Part shown: positions 1,788-30,277 of the stretch, piece after piece
How positions within the stretch are numbered: the stretch's first letter is position 1
Layout of the letters: each line of letters begins with the position of its first letter
Source: Xylanibacter ruminicola 23
Lineage (GTDB): Bacteria > Bacteroidota > Bacteroidia > Bacteroidales > Bacteroidaceae
Direction of reading: 5' to 3'
DNA: 32,000 nt
NCBI RefSeq assembly: GCF_000025925.1
Contig: NC_014033.1
Coordinates: 2,370,001-2,402,000, forward strand
Position numbers and translations under genes: made by a program
The notes under the pieces: generated by a model
Databases searched by the model: none
The model's input: only the letters and a program-made list of their open reading frames with translations
Told to the model about the DNA's origin: nothing

Positions 1788-1815
1788 TATTGATATAATC
1801 AAACGATTTAATACT

Positions 1816-1823
1816 TATCTTTG
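1816..1823 (+). promoter_or_regulatory. Bacteroidota -7 promoter box TATCTTTG
   Basis: TAnnTTTG match 17 nt upstream of the ATG at 1840. Confidence 0.6.
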
Positions 1824-1839
1824 TACCCGTTAAGGTATA

Positions 1840-2366: not shown

Positions 2367-3303
2367 GTGCCTGTTTTGTTATAAAGAACTGGAAGAAGGC
2401 CAGATTGACGTTCATCCTGCATGCGCCAGAAAGTTTTTCGGCAGTACTGATGTGCCCATCATTCCTTATACTCGTGATAACATGTCGGAACTGGCCCGAC
2501 AGGTTATTCGTACCAGTGCATCTGTTACGGGTGTGCAGGCAAAAATGTCGCTCGACGTGAATCGTGGCAGCAGAAAAGAACCGGCCAAGTTCACCATTGT
2601 CGGACTTTGGGGTAAGTATATCTTCAAGCCGCAAAGCGGGCATTATCCCTGTCTGCCTGAATTAGAAGACCTGACGATGAAGATGGCCGAAGCTGCCCGT
2701 ATCCGTACAGCCCGACATACACTGATCCGACTGGCTGATGGCGAACTGGGCTATCTGACGCTCCGTATGGACCGTGGGCGGAAAGGCGAGAAGATTTCGA
2801 TGCTTGATATGTGCCAACTTACCAACCGGCTTACAGAACATAAGTATTACGGCACCTACCAGCAATTGGCCGATACCATCAAGAAATATTCATCAGCCCC
2901 CATGCTCGACGTACAGCGGTTTTGGGAAGTGGTGTTATTCTCTTGGATAACAGGCAACTCAGACATGCACTGCAAGAACTTCTCGCTGATAGATACAGGA
3001 GGCGGTAAGTATGCTTTGGCTCCAGCTTACGACCTGCTTGCCGTGTTGCTGGCCGACCCTGCGGATACCGACGAGATGGCAATGACATTTACGGTGGGTG
3101 GCCAGAAAATAGGGTTCGACCGCAATACCTTCATGACTGCTTTTACCCAGAGTGGTATTCCTGTTGCCGTTGCATCTAAAATGATAGATCGCATGAAGCG
3201 CAATCTCCCCGTATGGGAAGAGCTTGTCAGCCAATCCTTCTTGCCAGATAAGATGAAGGCAGCCTATTGTGATTTGCTACGAAAACGAATAAGCAAATTA
3301 TAG
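2359..3303 (+). CDS. HipA-family Ser/Thr kinase core lacking N-subdomain 1 (HipT-like, 314 aa)
   Basis: Gly-rich loop SASVTGVQAKMSL, catalytic GNSDMHCKNFSL and Mg-binding APAYDLL are present. The N-terminus has a CxxC...HPxC cluster (CLFCYKELEEGQIDVHPAC). Confidence 0.85.
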   Translation: MSKCLFCYKELEEGQIDVHPACARKFFGSTDVPIIPYTRDNMSELARQVIRTSASVTGVQAKMSLDVNRGSRKEPAKFTIVGLWGKYIFKPQSGHYPCLPELEDLTMKMAEAARIRTARHTLIRLADGELGYLTLRMDRGRKGEKISMLDMCQLTNRLTEHKYYGTYQQLADTIKKYSSAPMLDVQRFWEVVLFSWITGNSDMHCKNFSLIDTGGGKYALAPAYDLLAVLLADPADTDEMAMTFTVGGQKIGFDRNTFMTAFTQSGIPVAVASKMIDRMKRNLPVWEELVSQSFLPDKMKAAYCDLLRKRISKL

Positions 3304-3383
3304 CACAAAAAACAACCGCCAGTTCAGGCGGATTCCCCGCTAAAACCGGGCAGTGTCGCGAATCGCGACGGCACCCCCCCAAA

Positions 3384-3413
3384 CCACTGCCCTGATTCAG
3401 GGCACTGGTTTTT
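3384..3413 (+). terminator. rho-independent terminator downstream of the hip-like operon
   Basis: CCACTGCCCTG-ATT-CAGGGCACTGG forms an 11-bp stem with one mismatch, followed by TTTTT. Confidence 0.7.
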
Positions 3414-3465
3414 ATCCGTCAGAAAGCGATCAGCCGTTTTATGTACAAAAAAGTCGCCCACACAC

Positions 3466-3498
3466 AAAAAGTGCCCGCGCCATCGCGGCGCAGAGCAC
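3466..3498 (-). terminator. probable terminator of the lipoprotein gene
   Basis: On the minus strand, the GC-rich hairpin GTGCTCTGCGCCGCG-ATGG-CGCGGGCAC is followed by TTTTT. Confidence 0.55.
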
Positions 3499-3535
3499 TT
3501 GAACTTAAAATTACGATAACGTTCTTATTGTGACT

Positions 3536-4945
3536 TTAATAGCCTACTCTTACGTATTTTGTAGTTGGTGTGGTAGCTGCAGTGTACTCTGTCCAAGATG
3601 TACCATCGTCGCAGGTCTCAATCTTGCCGGATGTGTAGCCGGCATCCTTGGTGAGGGTGACTTGGTTAAAAGCTTTACCCCCGGCACATTCAGCCCACAG
3701 CTTGCCGCCATGGACGGTGACGTTTGAATTGGTGCCGCCCGTAATTCCTTTGCTGTTTCCCTTACCTACGGCCTTGACATCGCCTCCGTAGATATTCATT
3801 GAGCCATTGGAAGCCAGATGAATTCCGTAACCGTAATTAGAACCTGTGTATGTGTATTCGGCATCAATCGACCCGCCATATACGTTAAATGTATCTATAC
3901 CATAGAAGCCGCCACAATTTCCAGAAGAAGTAGTTGATTTTACCTGGCAGCCGTGAACTTCCAATGTGGTTATGTACTTAATGGCATCACCATTTTGGCA
4001 ATTAACAACCAATTGGCCTGTCTTATTGGCTTGGCCATAAATGCTGAGACTGTAGCTTTGGCCGCCATTAATCAGGTTGGCAGTCAACTTGGCGCCGTCC
4101 TTGATAATCAGTTCGACATTACCCTTTAATGTGATATTTCCGTTGATGGTGACATTGCCTTCCACCACATAGGTGCCAGCTGCCCAATTGACATTCCCGC
4201 TAGCATTCTCCACCGTGGTATAAGTATCCGGCATCAGTGTTGCCACCAGTTCCTTCATCGTGTTATCCCACTTCAGATAGATCGCTTTCACGGTCACCTT
4301 GATGGCTGTGGCTGCAATCTCGCTGTCGGCGTGCTGGGCATCGGCCTTGGCGTAGTACCATATATAGTAGGTGCCTGCTGCCAGTGTTGCTGCCGTGGGC
4401 ACTGTGGCGTTGAAGCCATCGGTAGTGGTGGGCTGCGTGTTAGTCTCAGTCACCTGATACATCATCGTGCCGCCGTCGGCCTCGCCTGCTGTAACAAGGG
4501 CTGTGGCTGAGCCTGCGAGGATGTCGCCCGCTGTTGCTACAGGATCAGTAGTGATAGTAGCAGCTGGGAGGGTGGCTGGTTTAACTGTTACCACGTAGGA
4601 TTTCGAATCGGTGAGGAAGATTTTCTTGCCGCCGGTGCTGTAGCCAGTAGCGGTAGCGGTGATGGTAGTTGTGCCCTCAGCTTTGGCGGTTACAAGGCCC
4701 TCGTTGTCAACCGTAGCCACATCGGTTTTGCTTGATGTGTACTCTACCACGGCTGTGGTCACCGATATAGCTTTGCGCCTATAGGTATCGCCAACCTTGA
4801 GGGTTACGGGCTTGTCGCTCATTGAGAGGTAAGCCGGTATGGGATTGTCTTCGCTGGCGAAGATGTCGTCGCAAGCCGTAAAGAGCACAGCCAAGCAGCA
4901 CATCAGCGATGCCTGCAGCAGTCTTGAAATACTTTTCTTTGTCAT
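3536..4945 (-). CDS. surface lipoprotein with Big_2 Ig-like domain and C-terminal parallel beta-helix-like repeats (469 aa)
   Basis: Lipoprotein signal peptide ...LAVLFTAC. The segment VTLKVGDTY...TSSKTDVATVDNEGLVTAKAEGTTTITATA is Big_2-like. The C-terminal half has GNVTINGNITLKGNVELII-type turns and many G/N/T residues. Confidence 0.7.
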   Translation of the reverse strand: MTKKSISRLLQASLMCCLAVLFTACDDIFASEDNPIPAYLSMSDKPVTLKVGDTYRRKAISVTTAVVEYTSSKTDVATVDNEGLVTAKAEGTTTITATATGYSTGGKKIFLTDSKSYVVTVKPATLPAATITTDPVATAGDILAGSATALVTAGEADGGTMMYQVTETNTQPTTTDGFNATVPTAATLAAGTYYIWYYAKADAQHADSEIAATAIKVTVKAIYLKWDNTMKELVATLMPDTYTTVENASGNVNWAAGTYVVEGNVTINGNITLKGNVELIIKDGAKLTANLINGGQSYSLSIYGQANKTGQLVVNCQNGDAIKYITTLEVHGCQVKSTTSSGNCGGFYGIDTFNVYGGSIDAEYTYTGSNYGYGIHLASNGSMNIYGGDVKAVGKGNSKGITGGTNSNVTVHGGKLWAECAGGKAFNQVTLTKDAGYTSGKIETCDDGTSWTEYTAATTPTTKYVRVGY

Positions 4946-5009
4946 GATTAGATCGTTTAAATATTAAAATTGTTATTTCGGTAAAAATATGTCGTTGGGT
5001 TCTCTGCTG

Positions 5010-5017
5010 CAAAGGTA
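5010..5017 (-). promoter_or_regulatory. Bacteroidota -7 promoter box TACCTTTG (minus strand) of the lipoprotein gene
   Basis: TAnnTTTG match about 65 nt upstream of the ATG at 4945. Confidence 0.6.
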
Positions 5018-5039
5018 AAAAATTTTTCGGCTGCATTCA

Positions 5040-5048
5040 CCCCCCCCC
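5040..5048. repeat. homopolymer C9 (G9 on the coding strand of the lipoprotein gene)
   Basis: Counted directly. The tract ends 2 nt from the position where the -33 TTG would be expected (GGGGGGGGGTG, then 20 nt, then TACCTTTG). Confidence 0.9.
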
Positions 5049-5156
5049 GAGTTAAATTTTGTTAATCTAATAGATATTTCTAAGTTTCGTAGCACAAAAC
5101 ACCGCCGACATCCCTTTAAAATAAGCAGATATCGGAGAGAGGGGTTATGATTGCTC

Positions 5157-5308
5157 GGTGGTCATGGTGGTCAAGGTCAAAGTGGTCATTTTCGTTTTCG
5201 GAAACGCGGTCATTGCTCACTATATATAAATAGAATATTTATATTATAGTGGCGGAATTTGACAGTTGGTTTTCGATTTTGACCAAAATGACTTTGACCA
5301 TCGCGACC
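5157..5308. repeat. iteron-like repeat field: GGTGGTCA/GGTCA direct repeats, AT-rich palindrome, inverted TGACC repeats
   Basis: GGTCA occurs at 5160, 5169, 5175, 5184 and 5208. A near-perfect 34-bp AT palindrome spans 5218-5251. TGAC(C/A/T) occurs at 5259, 5280, 5288 and 5295, and CGACC at 5304. Confidence 0.8.
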
Positions 5309-5314
5309 GCGATG

Positions 5315-5370
5315 CGACATTAAACATGAAACATTAAACATTAAACATTAAAGATTAAACATTAAATATT
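5315..5370. repeat. tandem heptamer array, 8 units of AAACATT type
   Basis: Units in order: CGACATT, AAACATG, AAACATT x3, AAAGATT, AAACATT, AAATATT. The array ends 23 nt upstream of the -7 box at 5394. Confidence 0.9.
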
Positions 5371-5393
5371 CGTGAACCGCAATGGTAATGTTG

Positions 5394-5401
5394 TACCTTT
5401 G
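5394..5401 (+). promoter_or_regulatory. Bacteroidota -7 promoter box TACCTTTG for the HU gene
   Basis: TAnnTTTG match. It implies a leader of roughly 175 nt before the ATG at 5583. Confidence 0.5.
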
Positions 5402-5494
5402 CATCGTTGATTTGAGAGAGATAATTTGCGCGCCCACGAGAAAAAATTTACGGGCCCACGGGGGAGGCGATTTTTCGATTGAAATGAGACAGCG

Positions 5495-5515
5495 AGAGAT
5501 TAAACATTAAACATT
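5495..5515. repeat. tandem heptamer array (AGAGATT AAACATT AAACATT) inside the HU leader
   Basis: Read directly from the sequence. Confidence 0.85.
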
Positions 5516-5561
5516 CTTGCGTCCCTTCGGTAGCAAGCGCCACCCTACGGGATGTCGAGCG

Positions 5562-5582
5562 AAACATTAAACATTAAAGATT
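5562..5582. repeat. tandem heptamer array (AAACATT AAACATT AAAGATT) ending exactly at the HU start codon
   Basis: Read directly; the ATG at 5583 follows with no gap. Confidence 0.9.
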
Positions 5583-6134
5583 ATGGCATTGAAAGTAAAA
5601 GCTAAGGAACAGTTGCAGAACATCGGCAAGTATGCTGGTAAGTATCGTTACGTGATGATGCCGGAGCTGTACACGGCTCTGACTCAGGACAAGGTGATTA
5701 AGGAGGCTGCTCTGCGCAGCGGCGTGAGCAAGGGTGTGATGCAGGCCTGCTGGGATGCGGCTGGCGAGGTGATTAAGGCATGGGCCACCGAAGGTCACTC
5801 GGTTGCGCTGCCCGGACTGGGTACCATGCGATTCGGCTTGCGCGCCAAGAGCGTTGAGAAGGTGGACGAGGTGAAGGCCGGACTGATTTCGAGTCGCCGC
5901 ATTATCTTTACCCCCGACACCGATCTGAAGGAGGAGCTGTCGAAGACGGCCGTGCAGATTACCTGCTTTGACCGCGACGGCAAGGAGGTGAAGCGCGTGA
6001 CCAGTACCGACGATGGTAACGTGGAGGACCCCGACCAGCCTACCAATGGCGACAACGGTGGAAACACCGGAGGCGGAAACCAGGGCGGTAACACCGGAGG
6101 CGGCGGTCACAGCAATGAACCAATCGGCGATTAG
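5583..6134 (+). CDS. Bacteroidales-type HU-family DNA-binding protein with Gly/Asn-rich tail (183 aa)
   Basis: The N-terminal ~110 aa (…LTQDKVIKEAALRSGVSKGVMQACWDAAGEVIKAWATEGHSVALPGLGTMRFGL…) fit the HU-like fold family common in Bacteroidales (HU_HIG-like, from memory). The C-terminus is GDNGGNTGGGNQGGNTGGGG. Confidence 0.7.
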   Translation: MALKVKAKEQLQNIGKYAGKYRYVMMPELYTALTQDKVIKEAALRSGVSKGVMQACWDAAGEVIKAWATEGHSVALPGLGTMRFGLRAKSVEKVDEVKAGLISSRRIIFTPDTDLKEELSKTAVQITCFDRDGKEVKRVTSTDDGNVEDPDQPTNGDNGGNTGGGNQGGNTGGGGHSNEPIGD

Positions 6135-6140
6135 TTTTTA

Positions 6141-6235
6141 GGCACGGATTAACACGGCCTTTTTAAAAAAGGACACGGCTGTTATCAACGAAAAAAAGCA
6201 GCGTTTCTCTAAAAGAGAGCCGTGTAATCCGTGCC
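6141..6235 (+). other. long-range stem (17 bp with a 1-nt bulge) enclosing 60 nt between the HU gene and the small ORF
   Basis: GGCACGGATTAACACGGC (6141-6158) pairs with GCCGTGTAATCCGTGCC (6219-6235). The interior contains the CCTTTTTAAAAAAGG and TCTCTAAAAGAGA palindromes. Confidence 0.6.
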
Positions 6236-6243
6236 AAATTATT

Positions 6244-6264
6244 AACCATCAAACATTAAACATT
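6244..6264. repeat. heptamer array (AACCATC AAACATT AAACATT) ending exactly at the small-ORF start codon
   Basis: Read directly; the ATG at 6265 follows with no gap. Confidence 0.8.
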
Positions 6265-6366
6265 ATGAGTAAGAGAGAAACCATCAAGTTTATCGTGCAA
6301 ATGATTGCAAGTATCGCTACGGCGATAGTAACGGCGCTGGGCACGACCAGCTGCATGAGCATGTGA
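6265..6366 (+). CDS. 33-aa single-TM small protein (MSKRETIKFIVQMIASIATAIVTALGTTSCMSM), resembles the Bacteroidales 'smalltalk' small-protein family
   Basis: The ATG sits in the same ATT-ATG heptamer context as neighbouring genes. The peptide has a charged N-terminus, about 20 hydrophobic residues and a C-terminal TSC motif, and a terminator follows. Family name recalled from memory. The ORF is below the track's length cut-off. Confidence 0.5.
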   Translation: MSKRETIKFIVQMIASIATAIVTALGTTSCMSM

Positions 6367-6392
6367 ACGGAGCTGCATGAGCATGTGAACGG
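6349..6392. repeat. perfect 22-bp tandem duplication (AGCTGCATGAGCATGTGAACGG x2)
   Basis: 6349-6370 equals 6371-6392. The first copy holds the last five codons and the stop of the small ORF. Confidence 0.95.
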
Positions 6393-6395
6393 AGC

Positions 6396-6428
6396 GGCCA
6401 TCAATCAATGTGATTGGTGGCCGTTTTT
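6396..6428 (+). terminator. rho-independent terminator
   Basis: GGCCATCAATCA-ATG-TGATTGGTGGCC forms a 12-bp stem with one G-U pair, followed by GTTTTTG. Confidence 0.75.
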
Positions 6429-6513
6429 GTTTTAATCTGTAAGCAAAATAAAAGCGATTGCTTTCAGGTTGATAGTTGGAGCCAAAATGAAGATTTAAAA
6501 TTATGCCCTAATA

Positions 6514-6544
6514 TTGACTGGAAACGGGAAAATGCTTACCTTTG
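6514..6544 (+). promoter_or_regulatory. Bacteroidota promoter: TTG (6514-6516), 20 nt, TACCTTTG (6537-6544)
   Basis: Exact TTG-N20-TAnnTTTG geometry, 26 nt upstream of ATG 6571. Confidence 0.65.
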
Positions 6545-6570: not shown

Positions 6571-8166
6571 ATGGAAACAAAGTACATTTTCGTAACAGGT
6601 GGTGTGGTTTCCTCATTAGGCAAGGGAATTATATCGGCCAGCATTGGAAAGTTGCTGCAGGCACGCGGCTACAAAGTAACTATACAGAAATTCGACCCGT
6701 ACATTAACATCGACCCGGGCACGCTGAACCCCTACGAGCACGGCGAGTGCTACGTAACAGCCGACGGCTTTGAGACCGACCTGGACCTGGGACACTACGA
6801 GCGATTTACAGGCATACACACAACACGAAACAACAGCATAACAACAGGACGCATTTACAAAACGGTAATCGACCGTGAGCGTCGCGGCGACTACCTGGGT
6901 AAAACGATCCAGGTAGTGCCACATATCACAGACGAGATTAAGCACCGCATGCTGCGCGAGGGCCTTGACGAAGGCTTCGACTTTATCATTACCGAGGTGG
7001 GCGGCACCATCGGCGACATTGAGAGTGCCCCATTTATGGAGGCTATCCGACAGCTGCGTTACCAGCTGGGCCGCAATGCCGTATGCGTACACCTTACGTA
7101 TGTACCTTACTTAAAAGCCGCCGACGAGTTGAAGACCAAACCCACACAGCACAGCGTGAAGGAACTGCAGGGTATGGGTATTCAGCCCGATATCCTGGTA
7201 CTGCGCACCGAGCGCCATCTTGACGACGGCATGCGCATGAAGGTGGCATCGTTCTGCAACGTGGATCTGGAGTGCGTGGTGCAGAGCGAGGACCTGCCCA
7301 GCATTTACGAGGTGCCCGTGAACATGCAGCACCAGGGACTTGACGCAGCCATTATGCGTAAGATTGGTATTCCCGTAGGCGAGACACCTGCCATGAAGCC
7401 CTGGCGCGATTTCCTTGACAAGCAGCGCCGTGCCACCAACGAGGTACACATCGGACTGGTAGGAAAATACGACCTGCAGGATGCTTACAAGAGTATTCGC
7501 GAGAGCCTGAATCTGGCTGGTATCTACAACGATGTGAAGGTAAAAATGCACTTTGTGAACAGCGAGGAGATTACCAAAGCCAATGTGGCCGAGAAGCTGA
7601 AGGGTCTGGCTGGAATCGTGGTTTGTCCGGGATTCGGACAGCGCGGTATCGAGGGTAAGATCATTGCCGCCGAATACACCCGCACCAACGATATCCCCAC
7701 ATTCGGTATCTGCTTGGGTATGCAGATGATGGTGATTGAGTTTGCCCGCAACGTGCTGGGCTACAAGGATGCCAACAGCATGGAGATGGACGAGAACACG
7801 CCACACAACGTGATAGACATTATGGAGGAGCAGAAGAATATTACCGAGATGGGCGGCACCATGCGCCTGGGCGCTTACGAGTGTGAGCTGGTAAAGGGCA
7901 GCCGCGTGTACGAGGCCTACGGCGAGGAGACACTCATCAAGGAGCGCCACCGCCACCGCTACGAGTTTAACAACAAGTACCAGGAGGAGTACGAGGCCAA
8001 GGGCATGAAGTGCGTAGGTATCAACCCCGATGCCAACCTGGTAGAAATCGTAGAGATACCCGAGAAGCGCTGGTACATCGGTACCCAGTTCCACCCCGAA
8101 TACTCATCTACGGTACTGAACCCACACCCACTGTTTATGAGCTTCATTGCAGAATGCAAACATTAA
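6571..8166 (+). CDS. pyrG: CTP synthase (glutamine-hydrolysing)
   Basis: METKYIFVTGGVVSSLGKGI... is the canonical PyrG N-terminus, with GATase motifs GICLGMQ and HRHRYE. Start moved from 6514 to 6571 because the promoter lies inside the longer ORF. Confidence 0.95.
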   Translation: METKYIFVTGGVVSSLGKGIISASIGKLLQARGYKVTIQKFDPYINIDPGTLNPYEHGECYVTADGFETDLDLGHYERFTGIHTTRNNSITTGRIYKTVIDRERRGDYLGKTIQVVPHITDEIKHRMLREGLDEGFDFIITEVGGTIGDIESAPFMEAIRQLRYQLGRNAVCVHLTYVPYLKAADELKTKPTQHSVKELQGMGIQPDILVLRTERHLDDGMRMKVASFCNVDLECVVQSEDLPSIYEVPVNMQHQGLDAAIMRKIGIPVGETPAMKPWRDFLDKQRRATNEVHIGLVGKYDLQDAYKSIRESLNLAGIYNDVKVKMHFVNSEEITKANVAEKLKGLAGIVVCPGFGQRGIEGKIIAAEYTRTNDIPTFGICLGMQMMVIEFARNVLGYKDANSMEMDENTPHNVIDIMEEQKNITEMGGTMRLGAYECELVKGSRVYEAYGEETLIKERHRHRYEFNNKYQEEYEAKGMKCVGINPDANLVEIVEIPEKRWYIGTQFHPEYSSTVLNPHPLFMSFIAECKH

Positions 8167-8206
8167 ACATTAAAGATTAAACATTAAACATTAAAGAGTA
8201 AACATT
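8158..8206. repeat. tandem heptamer array, 7 units (AAACATT x2, AAAGATT, AAACATT x2, AAAGAGT, AAACATT)
   Basis: Read directly. The first units encode K-H-stop of pyrG, and the array ends 1 nt before ATG 8208. Confidence 0.95.
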
Positions 8207-8207
8207 A

Positions 8208-9956
8208 ATGGAGCAACTGAAGCATGAGTGCGGAGTGGCGATGATTCGCCTACTGAAGCCGCTGGATTACTACGAGAAGAAATACGGTACCTGGGCCTAT
8301 GGTTTTAACAAGCTGTACCTGATGATGGAGAAACAGCACAACCGCGGACAGGAGGGCGCCGGTATAGCCAGCGTAAACCTGAACAACAAGCCCGGCACCG
8401 AGTATATGTTCCGCGAAAAGGCGGAGGGCAAGAATGCCATTACCGAGATATTCAGTCGCGTTACCGAGGAGATGAAGGGCGAGCTGTTGATGGGCCACCT
8501 GCGCTACTCGACTACCGGCAAGAGCGGACTGACGTTTGTTCACCCCTTCCTTCGCCGAAACAACTGGCGCGCCAAGAACCTGTGCCTTTGCGGTAACTTT
8601 AACATGACCAACATCGACGAGGTGTTCGACTTCCTGACCGCCCAGGGACAGAGTCCACGTATCTACGGCGACTCGTACATCACCCTGGAACTGATGGGAC
8701 ACCGACTGGACCGCGAGGTGGAGCGCCTGTATCAGGAGGCCACCGCACAGGGTCTGACGGGCATCGACATTACCAACTATATCGACAACCACATTGAGAT
8801 GGCCAACGTACTGCGCACCACCATGCAGCACTACGACGGCGGTTTTGTGATGTGCGGACTCACGGGTAGTGGCGAGATGTTCAGCGTGCGCGACCCCTGG
8901 GGCATACGACCCGCCTTCTACTACCGCGACGACGAGATTATAGCCCTGGCCAGCGAGCGCCCCGTGCTGCAAACCACATTTGATATTGATAGTAACGACG
9001 TGCATGAGCTGCTGCCAGGTCAGGCACTGATAGTACATAAAAACGGCGAAAGCCGACTGGAGCAGATTATGCCTGCCCAGAAACTGAGCGCCTGCTCGTT
9101 CGAGCGCATCTACTTTAGTCGCGGTTCCGACTGCGACATCTACCAGGAGCGCAAACGACTGGGCGAACAGCTGACTCAACCCATCTTAAAGGCCATCGAC
9201 GGCGATGTAACCCATTCAGTTTTTTCCTATATCCCTAACACCGCCGAGGTGGCCTTTTATGGGATGACAGACGGATTCCGTAAGCTGCACGGCGACGTGC
9301 GTACCGAGAAGGTGGTGTGGAAGGATATTAAACTGCGCACCTTTATTACCGACAACAGCGAGCGCAACGATCTGGCTGCCCACGTTTACGACATCAGCTA
9401 CGGCAGCTTGCAGGCCGGTGTGGATAACCTGGTGATTATCGACGACTCGATTGTGCGCGGCACCACCCTGAAGGAGAGCATCTTTAAGATTCTGGACCGT
9501 CTGCACCCCAAGAAGATTGTGATGGTATCGAGCTCGCCACAGATCCGTTACCCCGACTACTATGGTATCGACATGGCCCGACTGGAGGAGTTCTGCGCCT
9601 TCCGTGCCACCATGGCCCTGATTGAGGAGCGCGGCATGTGGCAGCTGGTAAACGACACTTACCTGGCCTGCAAACGCGAGCTGGAGAAACCCAAGGAGGA
9701 GATGCAAAACTGCGTGCGCGCCGTGTACGAGCCGTTTACAGTAGATGAGATTAATAAGAAAATTGTTGAGATGTTGCGACCAGCCGACATGCAGGCACCC
9801 ATCGAACTGGTTTTCCAGAGTATCGAGGGCCTGCACAAGGCTTGCCCCAACCACCCAGGCGACTGGTACTTTACAGGCCACTACCCCACTCCGGGTGGCG
9901 TAAGACTGGTAAACCAGGCGTTTATAAACTATGTAGACAAGGTAACAAAAAAATAG
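8208..9956 (+). CDS. purF: class II glutamine amidotransferase / amidophosphoribosyltransferase, long Bacteroidales form (582 aa)
   Basis: A short propeptide (MEQLKHE) precedes the catalytic Cys in CGVAMI, followed by NRGQEGAGIA. The PRTase motif is VIIDDSIVRGTTLK. Confidence 0.8.
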   Translation: MEQLKHECGVAMIRLLKPLDYYEKKYGTWAYGFNKLYLMMEKQHNRGQEGAGIASVNLNNKPGTEYMFREKAEGKNAITEIFSRVTEEMKGELLMGHLRYSTTGKSGLTFVHPFLRRNNWRAKNLCLCGNFNMTNIDEVFDFLTAQGQSPRIYGDSYITLELMGHRLDREVERLYQEATAQGLTGIDITNYIDNHIEMANVLRTTMQHYDGGFVMCGLTGSGEMFSVRDPWGIRPAFYYRDDEIIALASERPVLQTTFDIDSNDVHELLPGQALIVHKNGESRLEQIMPAQKLSACSFERIYFSRGSDCDIYQERKRLGEQLTQPILKAIDGDVTHSVFSYIPNTAEVAFYGMTDGFRKLHGDVRTEKVVWKDIKLRTFITDNSERNDLAAHVYDISYGSLQAGVDNLVIIDDSIVRGTTLKESIFKILDRLHPKKIVMVSSSPQIRYPDYYGIDMARLEEFCAFRATMALIEERGMWQLVNDTYLACKRELEKPKEEMQNCVRAVYEPFTVDEINKKIVEMLRPADMQAPIELVFQSIEGLHKACPNHPGDWYFTGHYPTPGGVRLVNQAFINYVDKVTKK

Positions 9957-11883: not shown

Positions 11884-11953
11884 CAATATTAAACATTAAA
11901 CATTAAACATTAAACATTAAATATTGAACATTAAAAATTAAACATTAAACATT
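11884..11953. repeat. tandem heptamer array, 10 units (CAATATT, AAACATT x4, AAATATT, GAACATT, AAAAATT, AAACATT x2)
   Basis: Read directly. It fills the glnK-amtB spacer and is followed by TTCAGGATT and then ATG. Confidence 0.95.
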
Positions 11954-11962
11954 TTCAGGATT

Positions 11963-13219
11963 ATGAACGAAATTGGAATTTCACTCGATACCGTATGGAT
12001 GCTATTGGCAGCTATGTTGGTTTTCTGGATGCAGCCAGGTTTTGCGCTGTGTGAAGCTGGATTTACACGCAGTAAGAACACCGCTAACATCCTGATGAAG
12101 AACTTTGTAGATTTTATGTTCGGCTCGCTGCTGTTCTTCTTCCTTGGCTTCGGCTTTATGTTTGGTGGCGACGTGCTGGGCGGTTTTATCGGTATGCCTA
12201 ACTGGGGCGACCTGAGCTTTTACGAGAGCGACCTGCCTGTAGAGGGTTTCCTGATTTTCGAAACCGTATTCTGTGCCACTGCCGCAACCATCGTTAGTGG
12301 TGCTATGGCCGAGCGCACAAAGTTCTCGATGTATCTGGTTTACAGTGCAGTTATCTCACTGATTATCTACCCTGTAGAGGGTCACTGGACATGGGGTGGC
12401 GGCTGGCTTTGCAACGATGCTGCCGATAGCTTTATGATGACTACCTTTGGTGATGTGTTCCACGACTTTGCCGGTTCGGCTATCGTACACAGCGTAGGTG
12501 GTGTGCTGGCCCTGGTAGGTGCTATCGCCCTTGGTCCCCGTGTAGGCAAGTATGATGAGGACGGTAAGAGCCGCGCTATTCCTGGTCACAACCTGGCCAT
12601 GGCTGCTCTGGGCGTATTCATCCTGTGGTTGGGATGGTTCGGATTCAACCCCGGTTCACAGCTGGCTGCCAGCGGCGAGGTTAACCGCATTGCCATCAGC
12701 CACGTATTCCTTACCACTAACCTGGCTGCTGTAGCAGGTGGAACTGCTACCATGTTCCTTACCTATATCAAGTATGGCAAACCATCACTCTCACTCACCC
12801 TTAACGGTGTGCTGGCAGGATTGGTTGGTATCACCGCCGGTTGCGACCTGGTATCACCCTTCGGCGCAGTTATCATCGGTCTTGTTTGCGGTATCGTACT
12901 GGTTTACGCCATCGAGTTTATCGATCACAAGCTGCACATCGACGACCCTGTAGGTGCTTCGTCAGTACACGGTGTTTGCGGTATCCTGGGTACCCTGATG
13001 ACCGGTCTGCTGTCAACCTCAAACGGTGCTTTCTACGGTCACGGTTTCGGTTTCTTCGGTGCTGAGCTGTTCGGTGTTCTGGTTATCGACCTCTGGGCTG
13101 CTGCCTGTGGTGTAGTATTGTTCTACAGCATTAAGAAGATTCACGGTCTGCGCGTTAGCAAGCGTATCGAGGAAGAGGGCTTGGATATCTACGAGCACGG
13201 AGAAATGTGCTATAACTGA
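11963..13219 (+). CDS. amtB: ammonium transporter
   Basis: FWMQPGFALCEAG, AIVHSVGG and GVHGVCG are Amt-family signatures. The protein has about 11 TM segments. Confidence 0.95.
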   Translation: MNEIGISLDTVWMLLAAMLVFWMQPGFALCEAGFTRSKNTANILMKNFVDFMFGSLLFFFLGFGFMFGGDVLGGFIGMPNWGDLSFYESDLPVEGFLIFETVFCATAATIVSGAMAERTKFSMYLVYSAVISLIIYPVEGHWTWGGGWLCNDAADSFMMTTFGDVFHDFAGSAIVHSVGGVLALVGAIALGPRVGKYDEDGKSRAIPGHNLAMAALGVFILWLGWFGFNPGSQLAASGEVNRIAISHVFLTTNLAAVAGGTATMFLTYIKYGKPSLSLTLNGVLAGLVGITAGCDLVSPFGAVIIGLVCGIVLVYAIEFIDHKLHIDDPVGASSVHGVCGILGTLMTGLLSTSNGAFYGHGFGFFGAELFGVLVIDLWAAACGVVLFYSIKKIHGLRVSKRIEEEGLDIYEHGEMCYN

Positions 13220-13289
13220 TTGAAGATTGAAAATTGAAAATTAAAGAGAGAGATTTTACCATTAGTTAAAAATTAAAAGTGAACGAATT
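13220..13289. repeat. 70-nt (10 x 7) A/T-rich spacer starting with TTGAAGA TTGAAAA TTGAAAA TTAAAGA, degenerating toward the start codon
   Basis: Read directly. It begins right after the amtB TGA and ends at ATG 13290 (…GAATT ATG). Confidence 0.8.
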
Positions 13290-16530: not shown

Positions 16531-16541
16531 AAGCTTATTGT

Positions 16542-16571
16542 ACTATTTGACTATTTACTATTTCACTATTT
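16542..16571. repeat. four copies of ACTATTT (AAATAGT on the coding strand) at 8-7-8 nt spacing
   Basis: Read directly. They fill the permease-ATPase spacer, and the last copy overlaps the permease stop codon. Confidence 0.9.
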
Positions 16572-18927
16572 ATTCGTTCTTAAGATAATCTACCGGGTTG
16601 CTGCTGGCCACACGATAACAGCCGATGCAAACTACCGAGAGGATAACCACCACTACTGCCAGGGCACAAAGACCGAAGAGTACTGGCAACAGGACAGCCT
16701 TTTCGCTGAATTGCTCTAACCACAAGCGCGACACATACCAGCCACCGATGGCACCGATAACCACTGCAGGCAAGGCCAGGCGCAGAATATCGCGGATAAA
16801 GAGCTGCAACACATCGATGATATGCGCGCCGTTCACCTTGCGCACGGCAATCTCCTTCTGTCGGCGAGCCAACTCACCAGCCAGATAACCAATCAGTCCG
16901 ATCAGGGCAATAATCAAAGCTACCATTCCACCAATCATCACGGTACTGCGGAAACGGTGGGCGTCGGTATAAAGCTGCGTCATTAACATGGTATAGGGGC
17001 GCATGACTACATCGGGATTCTCGGGAATCAGCTCGTGCAAACGCTTGTTGGCGGCATCGAGCGCACCCATATCGTGGAAACGCACGGTGATATGGTGGGT
17101 GTATCTCATGTTCTGGTCGTAGAAACAGATGCTGGGACGCGTGTCGGGATGGGTGATACTACCGATACGGGGATCGTCGAACACACCCACGATGGTGTAA
17201 GGACCTTCGTAAGAGGTACAGATTACCTGCTTGCCAACAGCCTGATCCCAACCAGCCAACTGCTTCATCTTCTCCTCGAACTTACGACTTACCATCGCCT
17301 CGCGCATGGTGTCGGTCTGCTGCGTAAAGGTACGACCAGCAATCACGGGTATGCCCATCACCTCGAAGTAATCATCGCCTACATCAAACAGGTCGGCCAC
17401 ATTCATGTATTCCTTGTCATCGCCTGGCAGGAAGATGTTATCGCCACTCTGCATCTCAGGCAGGTAGGCATAAGATGTGGTAACACCTTTCACACCCGAC
17501 AGCTTTTTGAGCTCACTAACCACCAGTCGTTTCTGTGTCAACGAGAGCTCGTCGGTATTGAGATCGGCCAGGGTTGAATAGTCGTAACCTGGATTATCGT
17601 TCACCATCAGCTGATACTGGCGACCTACCACTAGCAGTAGTACAAAGAGGAAGGTGGCCGAACCGAACTGCAATCCCAGCAACAGCATTTTCCACGCACG
17701 GTGCGAATGGTTGTAATGCTTAAAGGCGGCAGTCATGGGGATGTGGGTGTAAGCCCAACCGGGCACCAGACCTGTGATAACCAGCACCACCAGACAAGTA
17801 AGGGCGATGAACCCAATGTTATGACCTGTAGTAAGGATGACCGGTAGTGGCGTGCCCGTAAGTTCCTGGATGGTATCCTGGAAGACGAACAGCAAGCCTG
17901 CGGCCAGCGCTAACGATAACAGCAGGTGCAGCACACTCTCGATCATCACGCGACCATAGATATTTCGCACCTCGGCACCATAGCAACGGTGTACAGCCAT
18001 CTCACGAGCGCGGCGACTAATGCCACCAATCACCAGCAACAGATAGTTCATCACCGCACAGCCAATCAGCACCATGGCCAGCAACGAGATAATCCATATC
18101 ATACGACGTGTAGCATCGTCCTGTGTATGATAGTCGGCCAACGGGCGCAGCGAGTAATCGAGATCCACACCGGCCTTCTTCAGTTCGTCGGCAGGCAGGT
18201 TGTCGCGTCGCATCTTCGCAATCTGTGCTTTCAAATCGTCGGGAGTGATTCCCTCGGCCAATCGCACATAGCCAAAGTAGCGATCGTTACCCACCCAGTT
18301 GTCGCGACCATCCCAGGTTATCTGGGGCAGTGTAGGCATCGATACCAGCACCTCCAAGTCGTGCAGTCGGGTGTTCAGGGGGATATCCTCGTAGATACCG
18401 CCAATAGTGAGTGCCAGATTGCCACGCTTATTATAATACACCTTCTTACCAATCACGTCGCCCCCCAGTTTCTCGGCTATCGACTGCGGAATCATGCAGT
18501 AGTTGGGCTGACTGAGCGTTTTCTTTGGATTACCTGCCAGAATACGGTAGGGAAACACATCGAAGAAACAGCTATCGGTAAAGAAAAAATTGGTACGTAT
18601 GCGCTTATCGTCTTCGGTAACCAGTGGCAGGTCCCAACCAAAGCCTGTATAGCGGGTAGCGGCCTCAACCTGCGGGCAGTAGCGCTTCAAGCCGTGAGCG
18701 ATAGCACCCGATGTTTGTGAGTAATGCTGATATTCACCATCGCGGATGATATCCTCATAGAGCACATAGATGCGGTCGCTCGTATCGAAGTCTTTATCCC
18801 ACGACTGTTCGAAACCAGCCTTACCTATTAATACAATACCAGTAGCCAGACCAACAGCCAGACAGAGAATCTTAATCCAGTTGTGCTGACCACGCTGATT
18901 GAGAGATTTGATAACGTTCATATGCAT
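16570..18927 (-). CDS. ABC transporter permease, double FtsX/MacB_PCD type (785 aa)
   Basis: The protein has two blocks, each with a large periplasmic loop followed by FtsX-type TM helices. Start moved to ATG 18927 (MHMNVIK...) because a promoter lies inside the longer ORF. Confidence 0.85.
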   Translation of the reverse strand: MHMNVIKSLNQRGQHNWIKILCLAVGLATGIVLIGKAGFEQSWDKDFDTSDRIYVLYEDIIRDGEYQHYSQTSGAIAHGLKRYCPQVEAATRYTGFGWDLPLVTEDDKRIRTNFFFTDSCFFDVFPYRILAGNPKKTLSQPNYCMIPQSIAEKLGGDVIGKKVYYNKRGNLALTIGGIYEDIPLNTRLHDLEVLVSMPTLPQITWDGRDNWVGNDRYFGYVRLAEGITPDDLKAQIAKMRRDNLPADELKKAGVDLDYSLRPLADYHTQDDATRRMIWIISLLAMVLIGCAVMNYLLLVIGGISRRAREMAVHRCYGAEVRNIYGRVMIESVLHLLLSLALAAGLLFVFQDTIQELTGTPLPVILTTGHNIGFIALTCLVVLVITGLVPGWAYTHIPMTAAFKHYNHSHRAWKMLLLGLQFGSATFLFVLLLVVGRQYQLMVNDNPGYDYSTLADLNTDELSLTQKRLVVSELKKLSGVKGVTTSYAYLPEMQSGDNIFLPGDDKEYMNVADLFDVGDDYFEVMGIPVIAGRTFTQQTDTMREAMVSRKFEEKMKQLAGWDQAVGKQVICTSYEGPYTIVGVFDDPRIGSITHPDTRPSICFYDQNMRYTHHITVRFHDMGALDAANKRLHELIPENPDVVMRPYTMLMTQLYTDAHRFRSTVMIGGMVALIIALIGLIGYLAGELARRQKEIAVRKVNGAHIIDVLQLFIRDILRLALPAVVIGAIGGWYVSRLWLEQFSEKAVLLPVLFGLCALAVVVVILSVVCIGCYRVASSNPVDYLKNE

Positions 18928-19056: not shown

Positions 19057-21408
19057 TTACTCGGTTTTAATGCTCTCAACCGGGTTGGTACGCACGGCTT
19101 TGATAATCTGGATGCTAACCGAGAGTACAGCTACCAGCAGGGCAAAAGCACAGGTAACGGCGAATATCCATGGGCTCAAGCTGATGCGATAGCTGAAGTT
19201 GCTCAACCAGTCGGTCATCACGTACCACGACAGCGGGATAGCGATGACAAACGATACCAGCAATGGTGCACAGAAGGTGCGCAGCATGAGTGCCATCACC
19301 TCGTGCGAGGTTGAACCCATAATCTTGCGGATACCAATCTCCTTCTGTCGCTGACGGATAAAGAAAAGCGACATACCGATGAAGCCCATCACCGAAATTA
19401 CAATCGCCACAATGGTAAAGAGCGAGATAATCTTGAGCGTATTCTTTTGATCGGCGAAGGTTTCGGCGATACTCTCCTCCAGCGACTGCACAGACCATTC
19501 CATATCGGCCTCGGGCACACCTTGTTCCTTCAGCATGGCTGTGAAAGTCGCCTTGGCCTGCTTGTCGCCATTGGTCTTCACCAGGAACGAAGGATAGTTG
19601 AACGAATCCTTGAATTGGATGACAAAAGGCTCAACACCTTGCAACACATTGATACGATGGATATCGTTAAGCACACCAGCGATAGGTTTATTCCAAACAG
19701 TCTGTGTGGTGGTGTCGGTATATTCCATCTGGCGCATAGCCTCCTCCGTCAGATAGTAACCATCACTGGTTTGTCCATAGTCTTTCTTTTTCTTAAACCC
19801 ATAAAGGTCGTAGGCCGTTTTGTCAAGGTCTAATAAGTAGAGAGTCACCAATTTATCGTTACGCGTCACACTTTGCATGCTACAGCTACCAGTAGCCAGC
19901 GAGGTTTTCTCGAACCTACCTATTTTCTCCACAAAAGGCATCTTCTCCAAGAGGTTTCTCACAGTTTGATGTTTGCCATCGGGAGCGTCGATAACAAACA
20001 GATGCTCTGTGTTGTAGCCCAGCGGCGCATGAATCAGATGATTCAGTTGCAACCAGATAACGAGGGCCGACGTAAGCATCACCACGGTTACCACATTCTG
20101 CAGAATGATAAAGATCTTGCTCAGCACCATCTTGGAGCGATAGCGGAAACTGCCCTTGACGATGTCGATAGGCTGGAAACGTGAAATCTGCCACGAAGGC
20201 ATGATGCCCGAGATGATACCCACCAACAGGATGAAAGCGATGCTAACACTAACGGTACCCAGACTGATATCGCCAGCAAGGTCGATCTTGCCCTTAAACA
20301 AATCGATAGCCTCATCCTGCAAGGCAAAGGCTAAAGCCAGACCGATGGCAAACGATACAGCTACCATCAGGGTTGATTCGGCAATCAACTTCAACGAGAT
20401 ATCCTTCTGACTACTACCGAAGAGTTTTCGGGTGGCCATCTCCTTGGCACGGAAGCCTGTGTTGGCAACCGTCAGGTTGATGTAGTTGCTGATGGCAAAG
20501 AAGAGGATGGCCAGCACAGCAGCCAACAGGATGCGAAGTCGCGACTTATCACCTTTCTGCATACCGGCTCCACTATTCTGTGGCGCAAACATAATGTCTT
20601 TGAGTGACGTAAAGGTCAGCTCCGTAGCCTCCCACTTACCATAGTAATTCTTATCCAGATAATCGGCAATAACAGACTTCTTGCTATCGAGACTGGTGCC
20701 TGGGTGCAGCATGAAGAATACCTTACTAACACCATTGGGGCCATAGGCCGCTGTGTAATTCTCGAGCTGATAGCCCATCACCTGCGGATAGCGCTGCATG
20801 CTCACGATAATCTGCGTCTCGTTAGGCAGTACGGTATGATCAAAGTCCTTTGCTATCGCACTAACGGTATAGACCAGCGTACTGTCGTAAGGGTCGTCGT
20901 GCCCGATACGCACGTGGCGCTCGCCAGTAATCTGAACCGACTCACCAATGGGGTTCTTATCACCAAACAAGCGCTTAGCCAGTCGCTCTGTAATCACGCA
21001 CTTATCGGGTTTATCAAGTGCATAACGCTTGTTACCCTGCGTCAACTCATAGTCGAAGAAGTTGAAGAAAGTAGAGTCGGCCAGCATGATCGTACTCTTG
21101 TCGTCGCCATCTTCCACCACGCGGTCGCCATATTTGATTTTTCCACTCTGACTCATCACACAGCAAGTCTGCTCCACCTCAGGGCACATCGCTTTGATAT
21201 CGGTGGCAGCCTGAGGCCACATAAAGAAATTATCCTGACTACCTATCAGAACAATCTGGTCGGCATGCTTGTGCCACGAGTCGATAGTAAACTGGCGCCA
21301 GGTGTAGTCGCCCAGCAGGATGATAAACATGAGTGACACTACAAGCCCTACCACATTGATTAATGTGTAGAGCTTGTTGCGTGAGAGAAAACGGAAATAA
21401 CTCTTCAT
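19057..21408 (-). CDS. ABC transporter permease, double FtsX/MacB_PCD type (783 aa)
   Basis: MKSYFRFLSRNKLYTLINVVGL... is a typical FtsX-family N-terminus. The C-terminal FtsX block ends ...AVRTNPVESIKTE. Confidence 0.9.
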   Translation of the reverse strand: MKSYFRFLSRNKLYTLINVVGLVVSLMFIILLGDYTWRQFTIDSWHKHADQIVLIGSQDNFFMWPQAATDIKAMCPEVEQTCCVMSQSGKIKYGDRVVEDGDDKSTIMLADSTFFNFFDYELTQGNKRYALDKPDKCVITERLAKRLFGDKNPIGESVQITGERHVRIGHDDPYDSTLVYTVSAIAKDFDHTVLPNETQIIVSMQRYPQVMGYQLENYTAAYGPNGVSKVFFMLHPGTSLDSKKSVIADYLDKNYYGKWEATELTFTSLKDIMFAPQNSGAGMQKGDKSRLRILLAAVLAILFFAISNYINLTVANTGFRAKEMATRKLFGSSQKDISLKLIAESTLMVAVSFAIGLALAFALQDEAIDLFKGKIDLAGDISLGTVSVSIAFILLVGIISGIMPSWQISRFQPIDIVKGSFRYRSKMVLSKIFIILQNVVTVVMLTSALVIWLQLNHLIHAPLGYNTEHLFVIDAPDGKHQTVRNLLEKMPFVEKIGRFEKTSLATGSCSMQSVTRNDKLVTLYLLDLDKTAYDLYGFKKKKDYGQTSDGYYLTEEAMRQMEYTDTTTQTVWNKPIAGVLNDIHRINVLQGVEPFVIQFKDSFNYPSFLVKTNGDKQAKATFTAMLKEQGVPEADMEWSVQSLEESIAETFADQKNTLKIISLFTIVAIVISVMGFIGMSLFFIRQRQKEIGIRKIMGSTSHEVMALMLRTFCAPLLVSFVIAIPLSWYVMTDWLSNFSYRISLSPWIFAVTCAFALLVAVLSVSIQIIKAVRTNPVESIKTE

Positions 21409-21426
21409 TTTTTATTCTTTATTTTT

Positions 21427-21981
21427 TTATTTCTGTGTAAGATAATAATCCATGTTCAGTGTATGGCTCTCAACAGGTGCCTGCCACTCCAGTTGCAAAT
21501 CGGTTTTGCTACGCTGACGGGTGTAACAAGCCACGCTGGCGATGCTTTCATCGGGCATCAGGGTATAGGTAATCTTACCTACGGGCTCGTCGAAGTCGGC
21601 CTTCTTCTTGTTCCAGCGACTATAAGTGGCGGTGTAGAATCCGGCATCCAGCGAGTAGCTGTGGCGACCTGCGCACTGCCACTGGTTCTTGCGCCATACG
21701 TACTTAGTACGACTGGTAAGCATGCCATCGGCAGCATAGTTGTACTGGTAGCGGTAGATGGGCTTCAGGGTGAAGTTACCCTTGCGCTGGGGCTGTTCCT
21801 GATATACCACCATCGTAGCAATCTTACCATCGGCATCACGATCAGCATTGTAAACAAACTCTGCGTCGGAGGCTTGAGAGACTGTGTCGAAAATCTTATC
21901 GACTGTTGCAGATGTCATTACTTGTGCATTTGAGGTCAGAGCCATCAGGCACATCATCGAGCTAATCATAAACTTTTTCAT
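21427..21981 (-). CDS. small secreted/periplasmic protein of unknown function (184 aa), possibly DUF3836-like
   Basis: Signal peptide MKKFMISSMMCLMALTSNAQ. The Tyr-rich beta-type sequence includes YRYQYNYAADGMLTSRTKYVW. The family call is a weak recollection. Confidence 0.6.
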   Translation of the reverse strand: MKKFMISSMMCLMALTSNAQVMTSATVDKIFDTVSQASDAEFVYNADRDADGKIATMVVYQEQPQRKGNFTLKPIYRYQYNYAADGMLTSRTKYVWRKNQWQCAGRHSYSLDAGFYTATYSRWNKKKADFDEPVGKITYTLMPDESIASVACYTRQRSKTDLQLEWQAPVESHTLNMDYYLTQK

Positions 21982-29726: not shown

Positions 29727-30254
29727 ATGAACAAGTACGGAACCATATTAATCGTTGATGATAACGCGGCCATCCTTACCGCTATGCGTTATCTGCTTGA
29801 CGGCACTTTCGAACAGGTGCTGACCTCGACCAACCCCGATGACATTCTGAAACTGATGGCCCAGCAAACCATCGACATCGTAGTACTCGACATGAACTTT
29901 ACCCTTGGTGTAAACAATGGTAACGAGGGCCTTTTCTGGCTTCGCACCATCCGCAAACAGCACCCCGAAACACCTGTGGTACTGCTCACAGCCTATGCCG
30001 ACATTAACCTGGCGGTAAAGGGACTGAAGAACGGCGCCGCCGATTTTATCACCAAGCCTTGGGATAACGACGAACTGCTACGCAAACTGAAAGATGTGCT
30101 GGATATGCAGAACGAAATCGTCAGTCTCGACGAAGTGGAACAGGAGCATATCCGTCGCACCATCGACCACTGTCATGGTAATCTCACTCAAGCCGCCCAG
30201 TTGTTGGGTATCACCCGTCAGACTCTTTACAACAAGATGAAGCGACTTAGTTAG
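29727..30254 (+). CDS. response regulator, receiver domain plus Fis-type HTH, no AAA+ domain (175 aa)
   Basis: ILIVDDN and VVLDMNF (phospho-acceptor Asp) and ITKPW mark the receiver domain. The C-terminal GNLTQAAQLLGITRQTLYNKMKRL is a Fis/HTH_8 motif. Start moved to 29727, downstream of the promoter. Confidence 0.9.
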   Translation: MNKYGTILIVDDNAAILTAMRYLLDGTFEQVLTSTNPDDILKLMAQQTIDIVVLDMNFTLGVNNGNEGLFWLRTIRKQHPETPVVLLTAYADINLAVKGLKNGAADFITKPWDNDELLRKLKDVLDMQNEIVSLDEVEQEHIRRTIDHCHGNLTQAAQLLGITRQTLYNKMKRLS

Positions 30255-30275
30255 TTGATAGTTGACAGTTGATAG
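30255..30275. repeat. tandem heptamers TTGATAG TTGACAG TTGATAG between the regulator stop and the kinase start
   Basis: Read directly. The array is preceded by TTAG TTAG, which contains the TAG stop, and followed by TT and then ATG 30278. Confidence 0.9.
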
Positions 30276-30277
30276 TT

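Follow-up and report, generated by a model that had tools for sequence, protein, structure and literature searches.

Cyanobacteria such as Calothrix and Nostoc carry STRR heptanucleotide repeats, i.e., tandem arrays that are dispersed in non-coding DNA. Three tandem heptanucleotides are described for Calothrix PCC 7601 (PMC4692102), and heptameric simple sequence repeats (SSRs) are known from Xanthomonas (unit GGGAATC) and Nostoc (GGGGATT); such arrays were also found inside operons (pecE-pecF), and their length differs among closely related bacteria (Rehm et al. 2015, PMC4692102). According to Mrazek et al. 2007, as cited in PMC4679880 and PMC4692102, many prokaryotes have heptanucleotide repeats as their most abundant class of longer SSRs; these are intergenic and possibly favored by polymerase slippage. 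Intergenic TAACTGA repeats were reported for marine Beggiatoaceae, Cyanobacteria, and five Bacteroidetes (MacGregor 2015, PMC4679880). These lie just upstream of starts that lack a Shine-Dalgarno (SD) sequence, show 7-nt indels between strains, and have no functional pattern among their downstream genes; a translational role and S1- or Csp-type RNA binders were proposed for them, and a role in rearrangement was raised for long arrays (PMC4679880). Here, we analyzed 32,000 nt of the genome of Xylanibacter ruminicola 23 (contig NC_014033.1, positions 2,370,001 to 2,402,000; this whole stretch is called the window), in which tandem AAACATT units form the entire spacer between pyrG and a purF-like gene. 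We consider it likely that this and the other AAACATT arrays are heptanucleotide SSRs, i.e., variable-number tandem repeats (VNTRs), that replication slippage creates and resizes, in bacteria with 7-nt repeats as the dominant class of tandem repeats.

The AAACATT arrays share with the TAACTGA repeats the 7-nt head-to-tail organization, a stop codon in the repeat, the intergenic location often a few nucleotides from SD-less starts, 7-nt steps between strains, the lack of a common downstream function, closest relatives that are often array-less, an admixture of other heptamers, and Bacteroidetes as hosts. They differ in the unit, and the window also holds TAGTTGA and GATTGAA arrays. Furthermore, most of the repeats in the BOGUAY genome are start-adjacent and point forward; the AAACATT arrays in our census (see below), in contrast, are balanced in orientation and show no register preference. 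What they add to the TAACTGA picture is an allele series within one species and a junction that was apparently tight in the ancestral state.

Prokaryotic heptameric SSRs in general resemble the AAACATT arrays in the dominance of period 7, the intergenic or operon-internal position, the variable length and sequence, and the proposed origin by slippage. The features of a prokaryotic heptanucleotide SSR or VNTR were all found, namely tandem repetition beyond chance, strain variation by whole units, non-coding location, and over-representation of period 7 in the loci examined. The GGGAATC and GGGGATT units are G-rich and G-quadruplex-capable; in contrast, AAACATT is essentially G-free and unstructured and occurs in an SD-less phylum. 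STRR repeats are likewise dispersed tandem heptanucleotides, with different units and in a different phylum. The contingency SSRs of host-adapted pathogens also change copy number near a gene by slippage. However, their units are mostly 1-5 nt long and lie in open reading frames (ORFs) or between promoter elements of surface or virulence genes, whereas the 7-nt AAACATT units lie between stop and start and flank housekeeping genes, so that on/off frame switching is impossible. An on/off phase-variation contingency locus was rejected for the focal array, which lies between a stop and a start within an operon.

The arrays belong to the published class of bacterial intergenic heptamer repeats, in which AAACATT is a further unit. 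The literature that we searched describes neither this unit nor other heptamer repeats for Prevotella or Bacteroidales. The preliminary description of the locus, made from the sequence alone, knew of no earlier account of the arrays as a defined element; the class, however, is published, including start-proximal heptamer repeats in Bacteroidetes (PMC4679880, PMC4692102).

The array between pyrG and the purF-like gene

The focal array (Table 1) consists, in this order, of the units AAACATT, AAACATT, AAAGATT, AAACATT, AAACATT, AAAGAGT, and AAACATT, followed by a single A (8207) and the ATG of the purF-like gene (8208). Five units are perfect, one has one mismatch, and one has two mismatches. Tandem Repeats Finder (TRF) described positions 8158-8208 as a period-7 repeat with 7.3 copies, 86% matches, and a score of 81. 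It also revealed a 21-nt super-period (2.4 copies, 96% matches), which indicates that the most recent expansion duplicated a three-unit block. The nucleotides AAA CAT TAA (8158-8166) represent the final two pyrG codons and the stop codon, and the TAA (8164-8166) is located within the first units of the array. Direct reading and TRF confirmed in this respect the preliminary description, according to which the array fills the spacer, supplies the pyrG stop, and ends 1 nt before the next ATG. The array sits between stop and start within the operon, and changes by 7 nt keep both ORFs intact.

The protein encoded downstream has its best match to PurF (TIGR01134, 149.9 bits), with a score below the cut-off of 350 bits, and the gene is therefore named purF-like. 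Xylanibacter (Prevotella) ruminicola accessions include an identical protein, and the window sequence matches assembly GCA_019973335.1. The public pyrG call (544 aa, start at about window position 6532) probably begins too early. The conserved PyrG N terminus, METKYIFVTGGV, starts at 6571, which yields a protein of 531 aa as called in other strains, and a -7-like Bacteroidota promoter motif (TAccTTTG) is found at 6537-6544, i.e., within the longer call.

A scan of the pyrG-purF and glnK-amtB spacers revealed no terminator-like site; such sites are present after purF and after the smalltalk gene. A scan that models sigma-70 but not Bacteroidota promoters found no sigma-70-like site in the focal spacer, and within this scope a promoter or terminator role of the spacer was rejected. 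No Rfam family reached its gathering score anywhere in the window, which rules out a known structured RNA family. In a predicted fold of 8128-8240, base pairs form between the 3' end of pyrG (GAGCUUCAUUGC) and the 5' coding sequence of purF (GCAACUGAAGC), and the entire array is looped out; the z-score of -1.33 is not significant.

Alleles of the junctions and arrays in other genomes

Alleles of the two junctions were gathered via contigs encoding an identical AmtB and from metagenomes, in a scan that used the 5' end of purF as its anchor. Among sequences with a purF about 98% identical, including the window with its seven units, the pyrG-purF junction contains four (L421), six (L004), eight (L006), or nine (L005) units. 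Two further members of this group (L415, L418) have eight units, mostly GAACATT, and their PyrG extends two units into the array and terminates at an array-borne TGA. Another one (L009) harbors a different, AAAAATG-like repeat derived from the local pyrG 3' sequence, and in L008 the junction is array-less and reads TAAcctATG, i.e., a 3-nt spacer. The same TAAcctATG junction was found with purF genes of 95.4-96.8% (L007) and 87% identity (L422; ungapped). More distant relatives have a 17-nt non-repeat spacer (L010), a 1-nt spacer (L414, L416, L417, L419), or overlapping genes (L420, L423). For the distant metagenome loci, ungapped purF identities (34-64%) were disregarded, as indels deprive them of meaning. 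The alleles differ by whole units, by 14- or 21-nt blocks, and by point variants, and the ATG-proximal end of the array (...AAACATTA ATG) is constant.

AAACATT arrays were thus seen in independent isolate and metagenome assemblies with differing copy numbers. This matches the slippage-expandable nature suggested in the preliminary description, which had named absence from independent assemblies as evidence against its reading. Since conspecific strains carry four to nine units or no array and the two genes overlap or are 1 nt apart in relatives, the pyrG-purF array is, as judged from the aligned junctions, derived, dispensable, and hypervariable. The ancestral junction would have been tight (1-3 nt or overlapping) and presumably translationally coupled.

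The glnK-amtB spacer contains about 6-10 units across strains, whereas L010 and L011 have no array there. The dominant unit variant of this array depends on the strain and is either AACATTA or ATTGAAC (the latter in 3-6 copies), a distribution that we take as concerted evolution. In L009, a 7-8 nt repeat (AAAAATG/GTAAAAAT) at positions 2617-2648 of that contig echoes the strain's own pyrG 3' coding sequence, which points to the apparent local birth of a new array. At the nucleotide level, amtB is at least 98.5% identical in all of the contigs. For the purF of L010, in contrast, identity falls to about 80%, and in L011 the neighboring genes are different, glnK being directly preceded by genes for glutamate synthase. 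It looks as if the glnK-amtB segment was recently exchanged or swept across lineages.

For the census, exact (AAACATT)3 matches were scanned in one genome per species, which gave at least 120 stretches; all census figures below are among the matches listed. Genes were assigned by crude, greedy long-ORF calls, and some loci are orthologous and hence non-independent. The hosts are mostly Prevotellaceae and other Bacteroidota, plus Cyanobacteria, and fewer than one match is expected for a random 21-mer by our estimate. Co-directional arrays occur in forward (38) and reverse (35) orientation, with 11 versus 14 in Prevotellaceae, so that an overall orientation bias relative to the genes is not apparent; 13 arrays lie between convergent and nine between divergent genes. 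Whole-spacer arrays were found 14 times, in both orientations, ten of them in Prevotellaceae. None of 122 arrays lies inside an ORF. This is uninformative, since any array of at least four units necessarily has stops in all six frames.

Only about one in four to one in three of the census arrays is start-adjacent. The forward ones among them (n = 21) are spread over the ATG registers 0 to 6 with 3, 4, 3, 1, 3, 4, and 3 cases (chi-square P = 0.92). On the basis of this uniform register, a phasing of array ends with start codons, for which the preliminary description had proposed a test, was rejected. An A at position -3 is present in 8 of these 21 arrays compared to a background of 48% and is not enriched. 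In reverse orientation the unit reads TTTAATG, and both the upstream TAA and the downstream ATG can come from the repeat (TAATG). Whole operon spacers made of (TTTAATG)n were found at six Prevotellaceae loci (L014, L030, L093, L103, L107, L116), and reverse arrays set several AUGs directly upstream of genuine starts. We also considered that reverse arrays act as a relay of TAATG-coupled 4-codon mini-ORFs with two units per hop; the parity that this requires was present in only 2/7 whole-spacer cases, and the idea was rejected.

Period 7 is not restricted to AAACATT. According to TRF analysis of the fetched loci (arrays of at least three copies, AAACATT-like ones excluded), it accounts for 27/61 tandem repeats in Prevotellaceae loci and 81/189 overall, with many different units; these loci were ascertained on one array and do not represent whole genomes. 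A search of viral contigs gave 86 stretches with (AAACATT)3, compared to 95, 62, and 37 for three composition-matched, TAA-containing control heptamers. As the controls are about as frequent, AAACATT is not a special or privileged unit.

In Bacteroidota, functional SD interactions are missing, and leaders have to be unstructured (Accetto & Avgustin 2011, PMC3155529). Initiation in Flavobacterium johnsoniae is stimulated by A at -3, -6, -12, and -13 (Baez et al. 2019, PMC6847099), and AUG is depleted around Bacteroidetes starts (PMC6847099). We compared the arrays with leaders of 160 Prevotellaceae genes without an upstream array. These native leaders have an A content of 0.4-0.5, contain little G or C between -15 and -3, favor T at -1, and show no G peak. 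Like native Bacteroidota initiation regions (PMC3155529, PMC6847099), a forward AAACATT array is A-rich, low in GC, and unstructured; unlike the arrays, native leaders are non-repetitive, and reverse arrays break the AUG-depletion rule (PMC6847099). ATT directly precedes the ATG in 17 of the 160 genes, where it is the commonest triplet, and in 6/20 genes of the window.

The units are essentially G-free, and no SD is present at the associated starts, as already noted in the preliminary description. Its proposal that a unit abutting the ATG provides A residues at Kozak-like positions holds for the two arrays in register 0: positions -3, -6, -12, and -13 are A in 4/4 cases upstream of both the HU-HIG and the smalltalk gene. 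Upstream of amtB, 3/4 of these positions are A. The proposal does not hold for the focal array, which is in register 1, i.e., one nucleotide off ATT-ATG, and has T at -3 and G at -12 (2/4 for the purF-like gene: T, A, G, A). The array RNA alone has a predicted minimum free energy (MFE) of 0 kcal/mol, and dinucleotide shuffles are nearly equal. The expected freedom from structure was thus found, and it is compositional, since there is almost no G and shuffled sequences behave alike. The predicted opening energy of -20 to +12 at the purF start is 6.6-9.5 kcal/mol in alleles with an array and 3.1-6.3 kcal/mol in array-less ones. It is no lower with the array, and these predictions give no sign of a better accessibility of the start site.

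Origin and possible roles of the arrays

For the AAACATT arrays as slippage-generated VNTRs, we consider the following course of events likely. Four or more units give TAA in all three frames of both strands, so that an array can exist only outside genes. An ORF reading into an array simply terminates there, and pyrG obtains its stop in this way. The sense RNA of an array, being A-rich, almost G-free, AUG-free, and unstructured, resembles an ordinary SD-less Bacteroidota initiation region, and owing to this likeness the repeat is probably tolerated even directly before a start codon. At the pyrG-purF junction, the array has apparently replaced an ancestrally tight, presumably coupled junction with a variable spacer of 20-55 nt. 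Translation of the purF-like gene would then begin either by re-initiation once pyrG has been terminated or, de novo, on the unstructured spacer. For the arrays in general, we infer slippage as the mechanism and near-neutrality.

Several observations count against this reading. Start-adjacent arrays (31 versus 19.2) and stop-adjacent arrays (34 versus 22.7) are somewhat more frequent than expected if arrays were placed uniformly within their intergenic gaps. Where a heptamer array abuts a start, its A-rich strand is sense in 24 cases versus 12, a weak and non-significant preference (binomial, two-sided P of about 0.07 by our own estimate). Perfect arrays are kept at orthologous sites across species (L014/L093/L107, and L047/L113/L124 in Chryseobacterium). 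Finally, the density of heptamer arrays in the window is high, with roughly ten in 32 kb. Boundary enrichment, sense-strand preference, orthologous persistence, and density allow some selective retention or biased tolerance.

The preliminary description had interpreted the arrays as selected, modular translation-initiation and insulator spacers, i.e., as unstructured, A-phased, Kozak-like landing pads that uncouple the downstream cistron. The predicted absence of structure, the composition, which equals that of native Prevotellaceae leaders, the need of Prevotella translation for unstructured leaders (PMC3155529), the weak 2:1 preference for the A-rich sense orientation beside starts, and the A residues of the register-0 arrays at the positive determinants (PMC6847099) are all consistent with such a function. 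However, a dedicated initiation element is unlikely. Neither register nor orientation is biased, reverse arrays with multiple AUGs abut genuine starts, and the focal array itself deviates from the favored context. The array is missing in conspecific strains with about 98% identity, the ancestral junction left little or no room for it, and the predicted accessibility of the start does not improve in its presence. Furthermore, at least one array (5315-5370) lies upstream of a predicted promoter, and control heptamers are equally common. A different form of selection would be that the arrays serve as tuning knobs in SD-less Bacteroidota. By replacing a coupled junction with an unstructured, AUG-free, adjustable spacer, the unit number would set the purF:pyrG and amtB:glnK protein ratios, and slippage would quickly re-tune populations. 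In this strong form the idea seems improbable to us, while a modest role of the array as a tuner of translational coupling is possible. If copy number does tune translational coupling, the finding would be considerably more interesting.

It is very unlikely that the arrays are sites for a sequence-specific DNA- or RNA-binding regulator, such as a nitrogen regulator or the S1- or Csp-type RNA binders that MacGregor proposed for the TAACTGA repeats. The arrays in the window do cluster around nitrogen and amidotransferase genes, as pyrG, purF, asnB, and glnK-amtB all use glutamine or ammonium, and some arrays are kept at orthologous sites. In other genomes, however, the array-adjacent genes are unrelated (SPFH, purM-like, LytTR regulator, peptidase, aminotransferase, nucleosidase, POR, PPK2, MazG, alanine racemase, CoaD-like), and on the basis of this diversity a nitrogen or other regulon was rejected. 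Both orientations occur, the array is absent in conspecific strains, copy number and dominant unit variant depend on the strain, and many different heptamers are used alike. An origin from mobile elements, with the arrays as remnants or cargo of elements like miniature inverted-repeat transposable elements (MITE) or repetitive extragenic palindromic (REP) sequences, or as recombination hotspots that mark junctions of exchanged DNA, is likewise very unlikely. AAACATT does occur at six sites within 7 kb, four of them in or beside a mobile-element-like insertion, strains with and without the array have different pyrG 3' ends, and a role of long arrays in rearrangement was raised by MacGregor. No flanking inverted repeats or duplications were found at the focal array, however, and arrays gain or lose whole units in place while their flanks stay the same. 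In addition, the repeat of L009, built from its own pyrG 3' sequence, indicates local birth. A MITE- or REP-type element was rejected, since the focal array has no inverted repeats and is unstructured and the flanks differ among sites. That short tandem repeats are prone to mis-assembly could suggest an assembly or sequencing artefact. This explanation is refuted for practical purposes by the recurrence of the same junction, with ordered unit-level differences, in several independent isolate and metagenome assemblies.

The arrays add rumen Prevotellaceae to the lineages in which intergenic heptamer repeats abound, next to Cyanobacteria, Xanthomonas, and Beggiatoaceae. In heptamer-rich bacteria, an operon spacer can consist of repeats throughout, with its stop and start codons included, and such arrays are spots where short-read assemblies and gene callers may err on stops and starts. 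The arrays are also ready VNTR markers for typing of X. ruminicola strains in metagenomes. The natural allele series at pyrG-purF (overlap, 1, 3, 20, 34, 41, 48, and 55 nt) could be used to probe initiation at internal cistrons in a phylum whose ribosomes ignore SD sequences.

Other repeat arrays and features of the window

Besides the focal array, five further AAACATT arrays were found in the window, all on the plus strand (Table 1). A two-unit pattern with up to two mismatches has 27 matches in the window versus 0.30 expected, a count reached by none of 100 shuffles. These sites agree with the recurrences in the preliminary description, where the fourth one had been delimited as 6251-6264; the exact ends on ATT-ATG reported there for this array and for 5562-5582 were found as well (starts 6265 and 5583). 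Of the six AAACATT arrays, 3/6 are within 1 nt of a start. The TAGTTGA array shows the same whole-spacer architecture as the pyrG-purF junction with a different unit.

Table 1. Heptamer arrays and associated genes in the window
Feature	Position	Strand	Remarks
AAACATT array, ~8 units	5315..5370	+	Upstream of TAccTTTG (-7-like) motif at 5394-5401
AAACATT array, 3 units	5495..5515	+	Within presumed 5' untranslated region of HU-HIG gene
AAACATT array, 3 units	5562..5582	+	Ends exactly on ATT-ATG of HU-HIG gene (start 5583)
AAACATT array, 2 perfect and 1 degenerate unit	6244..6264	+	Ends exactly on ATT-ATG of smalltalk gene
33-aa "smalltalk" gene	6265-6366	+	ATG directly after array 6244..6264
pyrG (CTP synthase)	6571..8166	+	NCBIfam CTP synthase, 811 bits; probable true start 6571
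Focal AAACATT array, 7 units	8158..8206	+	Variants AAAGATT and AAAGAGT; 21-nt super-period
purF-like amidophosphoribosyltransferase gene	8208..9956	+	ATG 1 nt past array; 582 aa
AAACATT-type array, 10 units	11884..11953	+	glnK-amtB spacer; begins 3 nt past glnK stop, ends 9 nt before amtB ATG (11963)
GATTGAA array, x4.3	13218..13247	+	Overlaps amtB TGA stop (13217-13219); spacer before 245-aa gene
Period 7-8 array, AAATAGT-like on gene strand	16536..16572	-	Spacer of two minus-strand ABC-transporter genes
Period 7-8 A-rich array, ATAAAGA/ATAAAAA on gene strand	21402..21432	-	Directly upstream of minus-strand gene start
TAGTTGA array, x3.7	30252..30277	+	From response-regulator TAG stop to histidine-kinase ATG (30278)

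The array at 5315-5370 probably sits upstream of the HU-HIG promoter and outside the leader, because the predicted -7-like motif comes after it. The HU-HIG protein was found in the window's own assembly only, and consequently no further alleles of the upstream arrays were obtained. The region upstream of pyrG (window 1-6430; 1-8200 in L001) encodes DUF3987, Bro-N/ANT, RelE, HTH, HipBA, a Big_2 protein, HU-HIG, and the smalltalk gene. In other strains, gltB is located directly upstream of pyrG, and the region looks like a strain-specific mobile-element insertion, in which or at whose edge 4/6 AAACATT arrays are located.

In Chryseobacterium, the three species with an orthologous array (L047, L113, L124) have perfect AAACATT arrays of 6-7 units at one site near a PPK2 gene. 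Another orthologous pair of loci (L061, L074) lies near a MazG gene. Such persistence is unusual for a presumably neutral repeat.

A TCACCCA-like repeat with periods of 7 and 21 (48 nt, 30906-30953) is located inside the histidine-kinase ORF. This heptamer-based array is tolerated in coding sequence, as its length is divisible by three and none of its stops is in frame. An element resembling a hairpin, CTTGCGTCCC(T/G)T(C/T)GGTAGCAAGCG, is present at 5516-5561 and 28725-28762 and may represent a small dispersed repeat family. Near each copy there are repeats with a 22-nt period (5416-5460 and 28763-28820), the latter of which contains AAACATT. The smalltalk ORF ends within a perfect tandem duplication of 22 nt (AGCTGCATGAGCATGTGAACGG x2.1) at 6349-6395, and a terminator-like hairpin (6391-6427) is found just after it.

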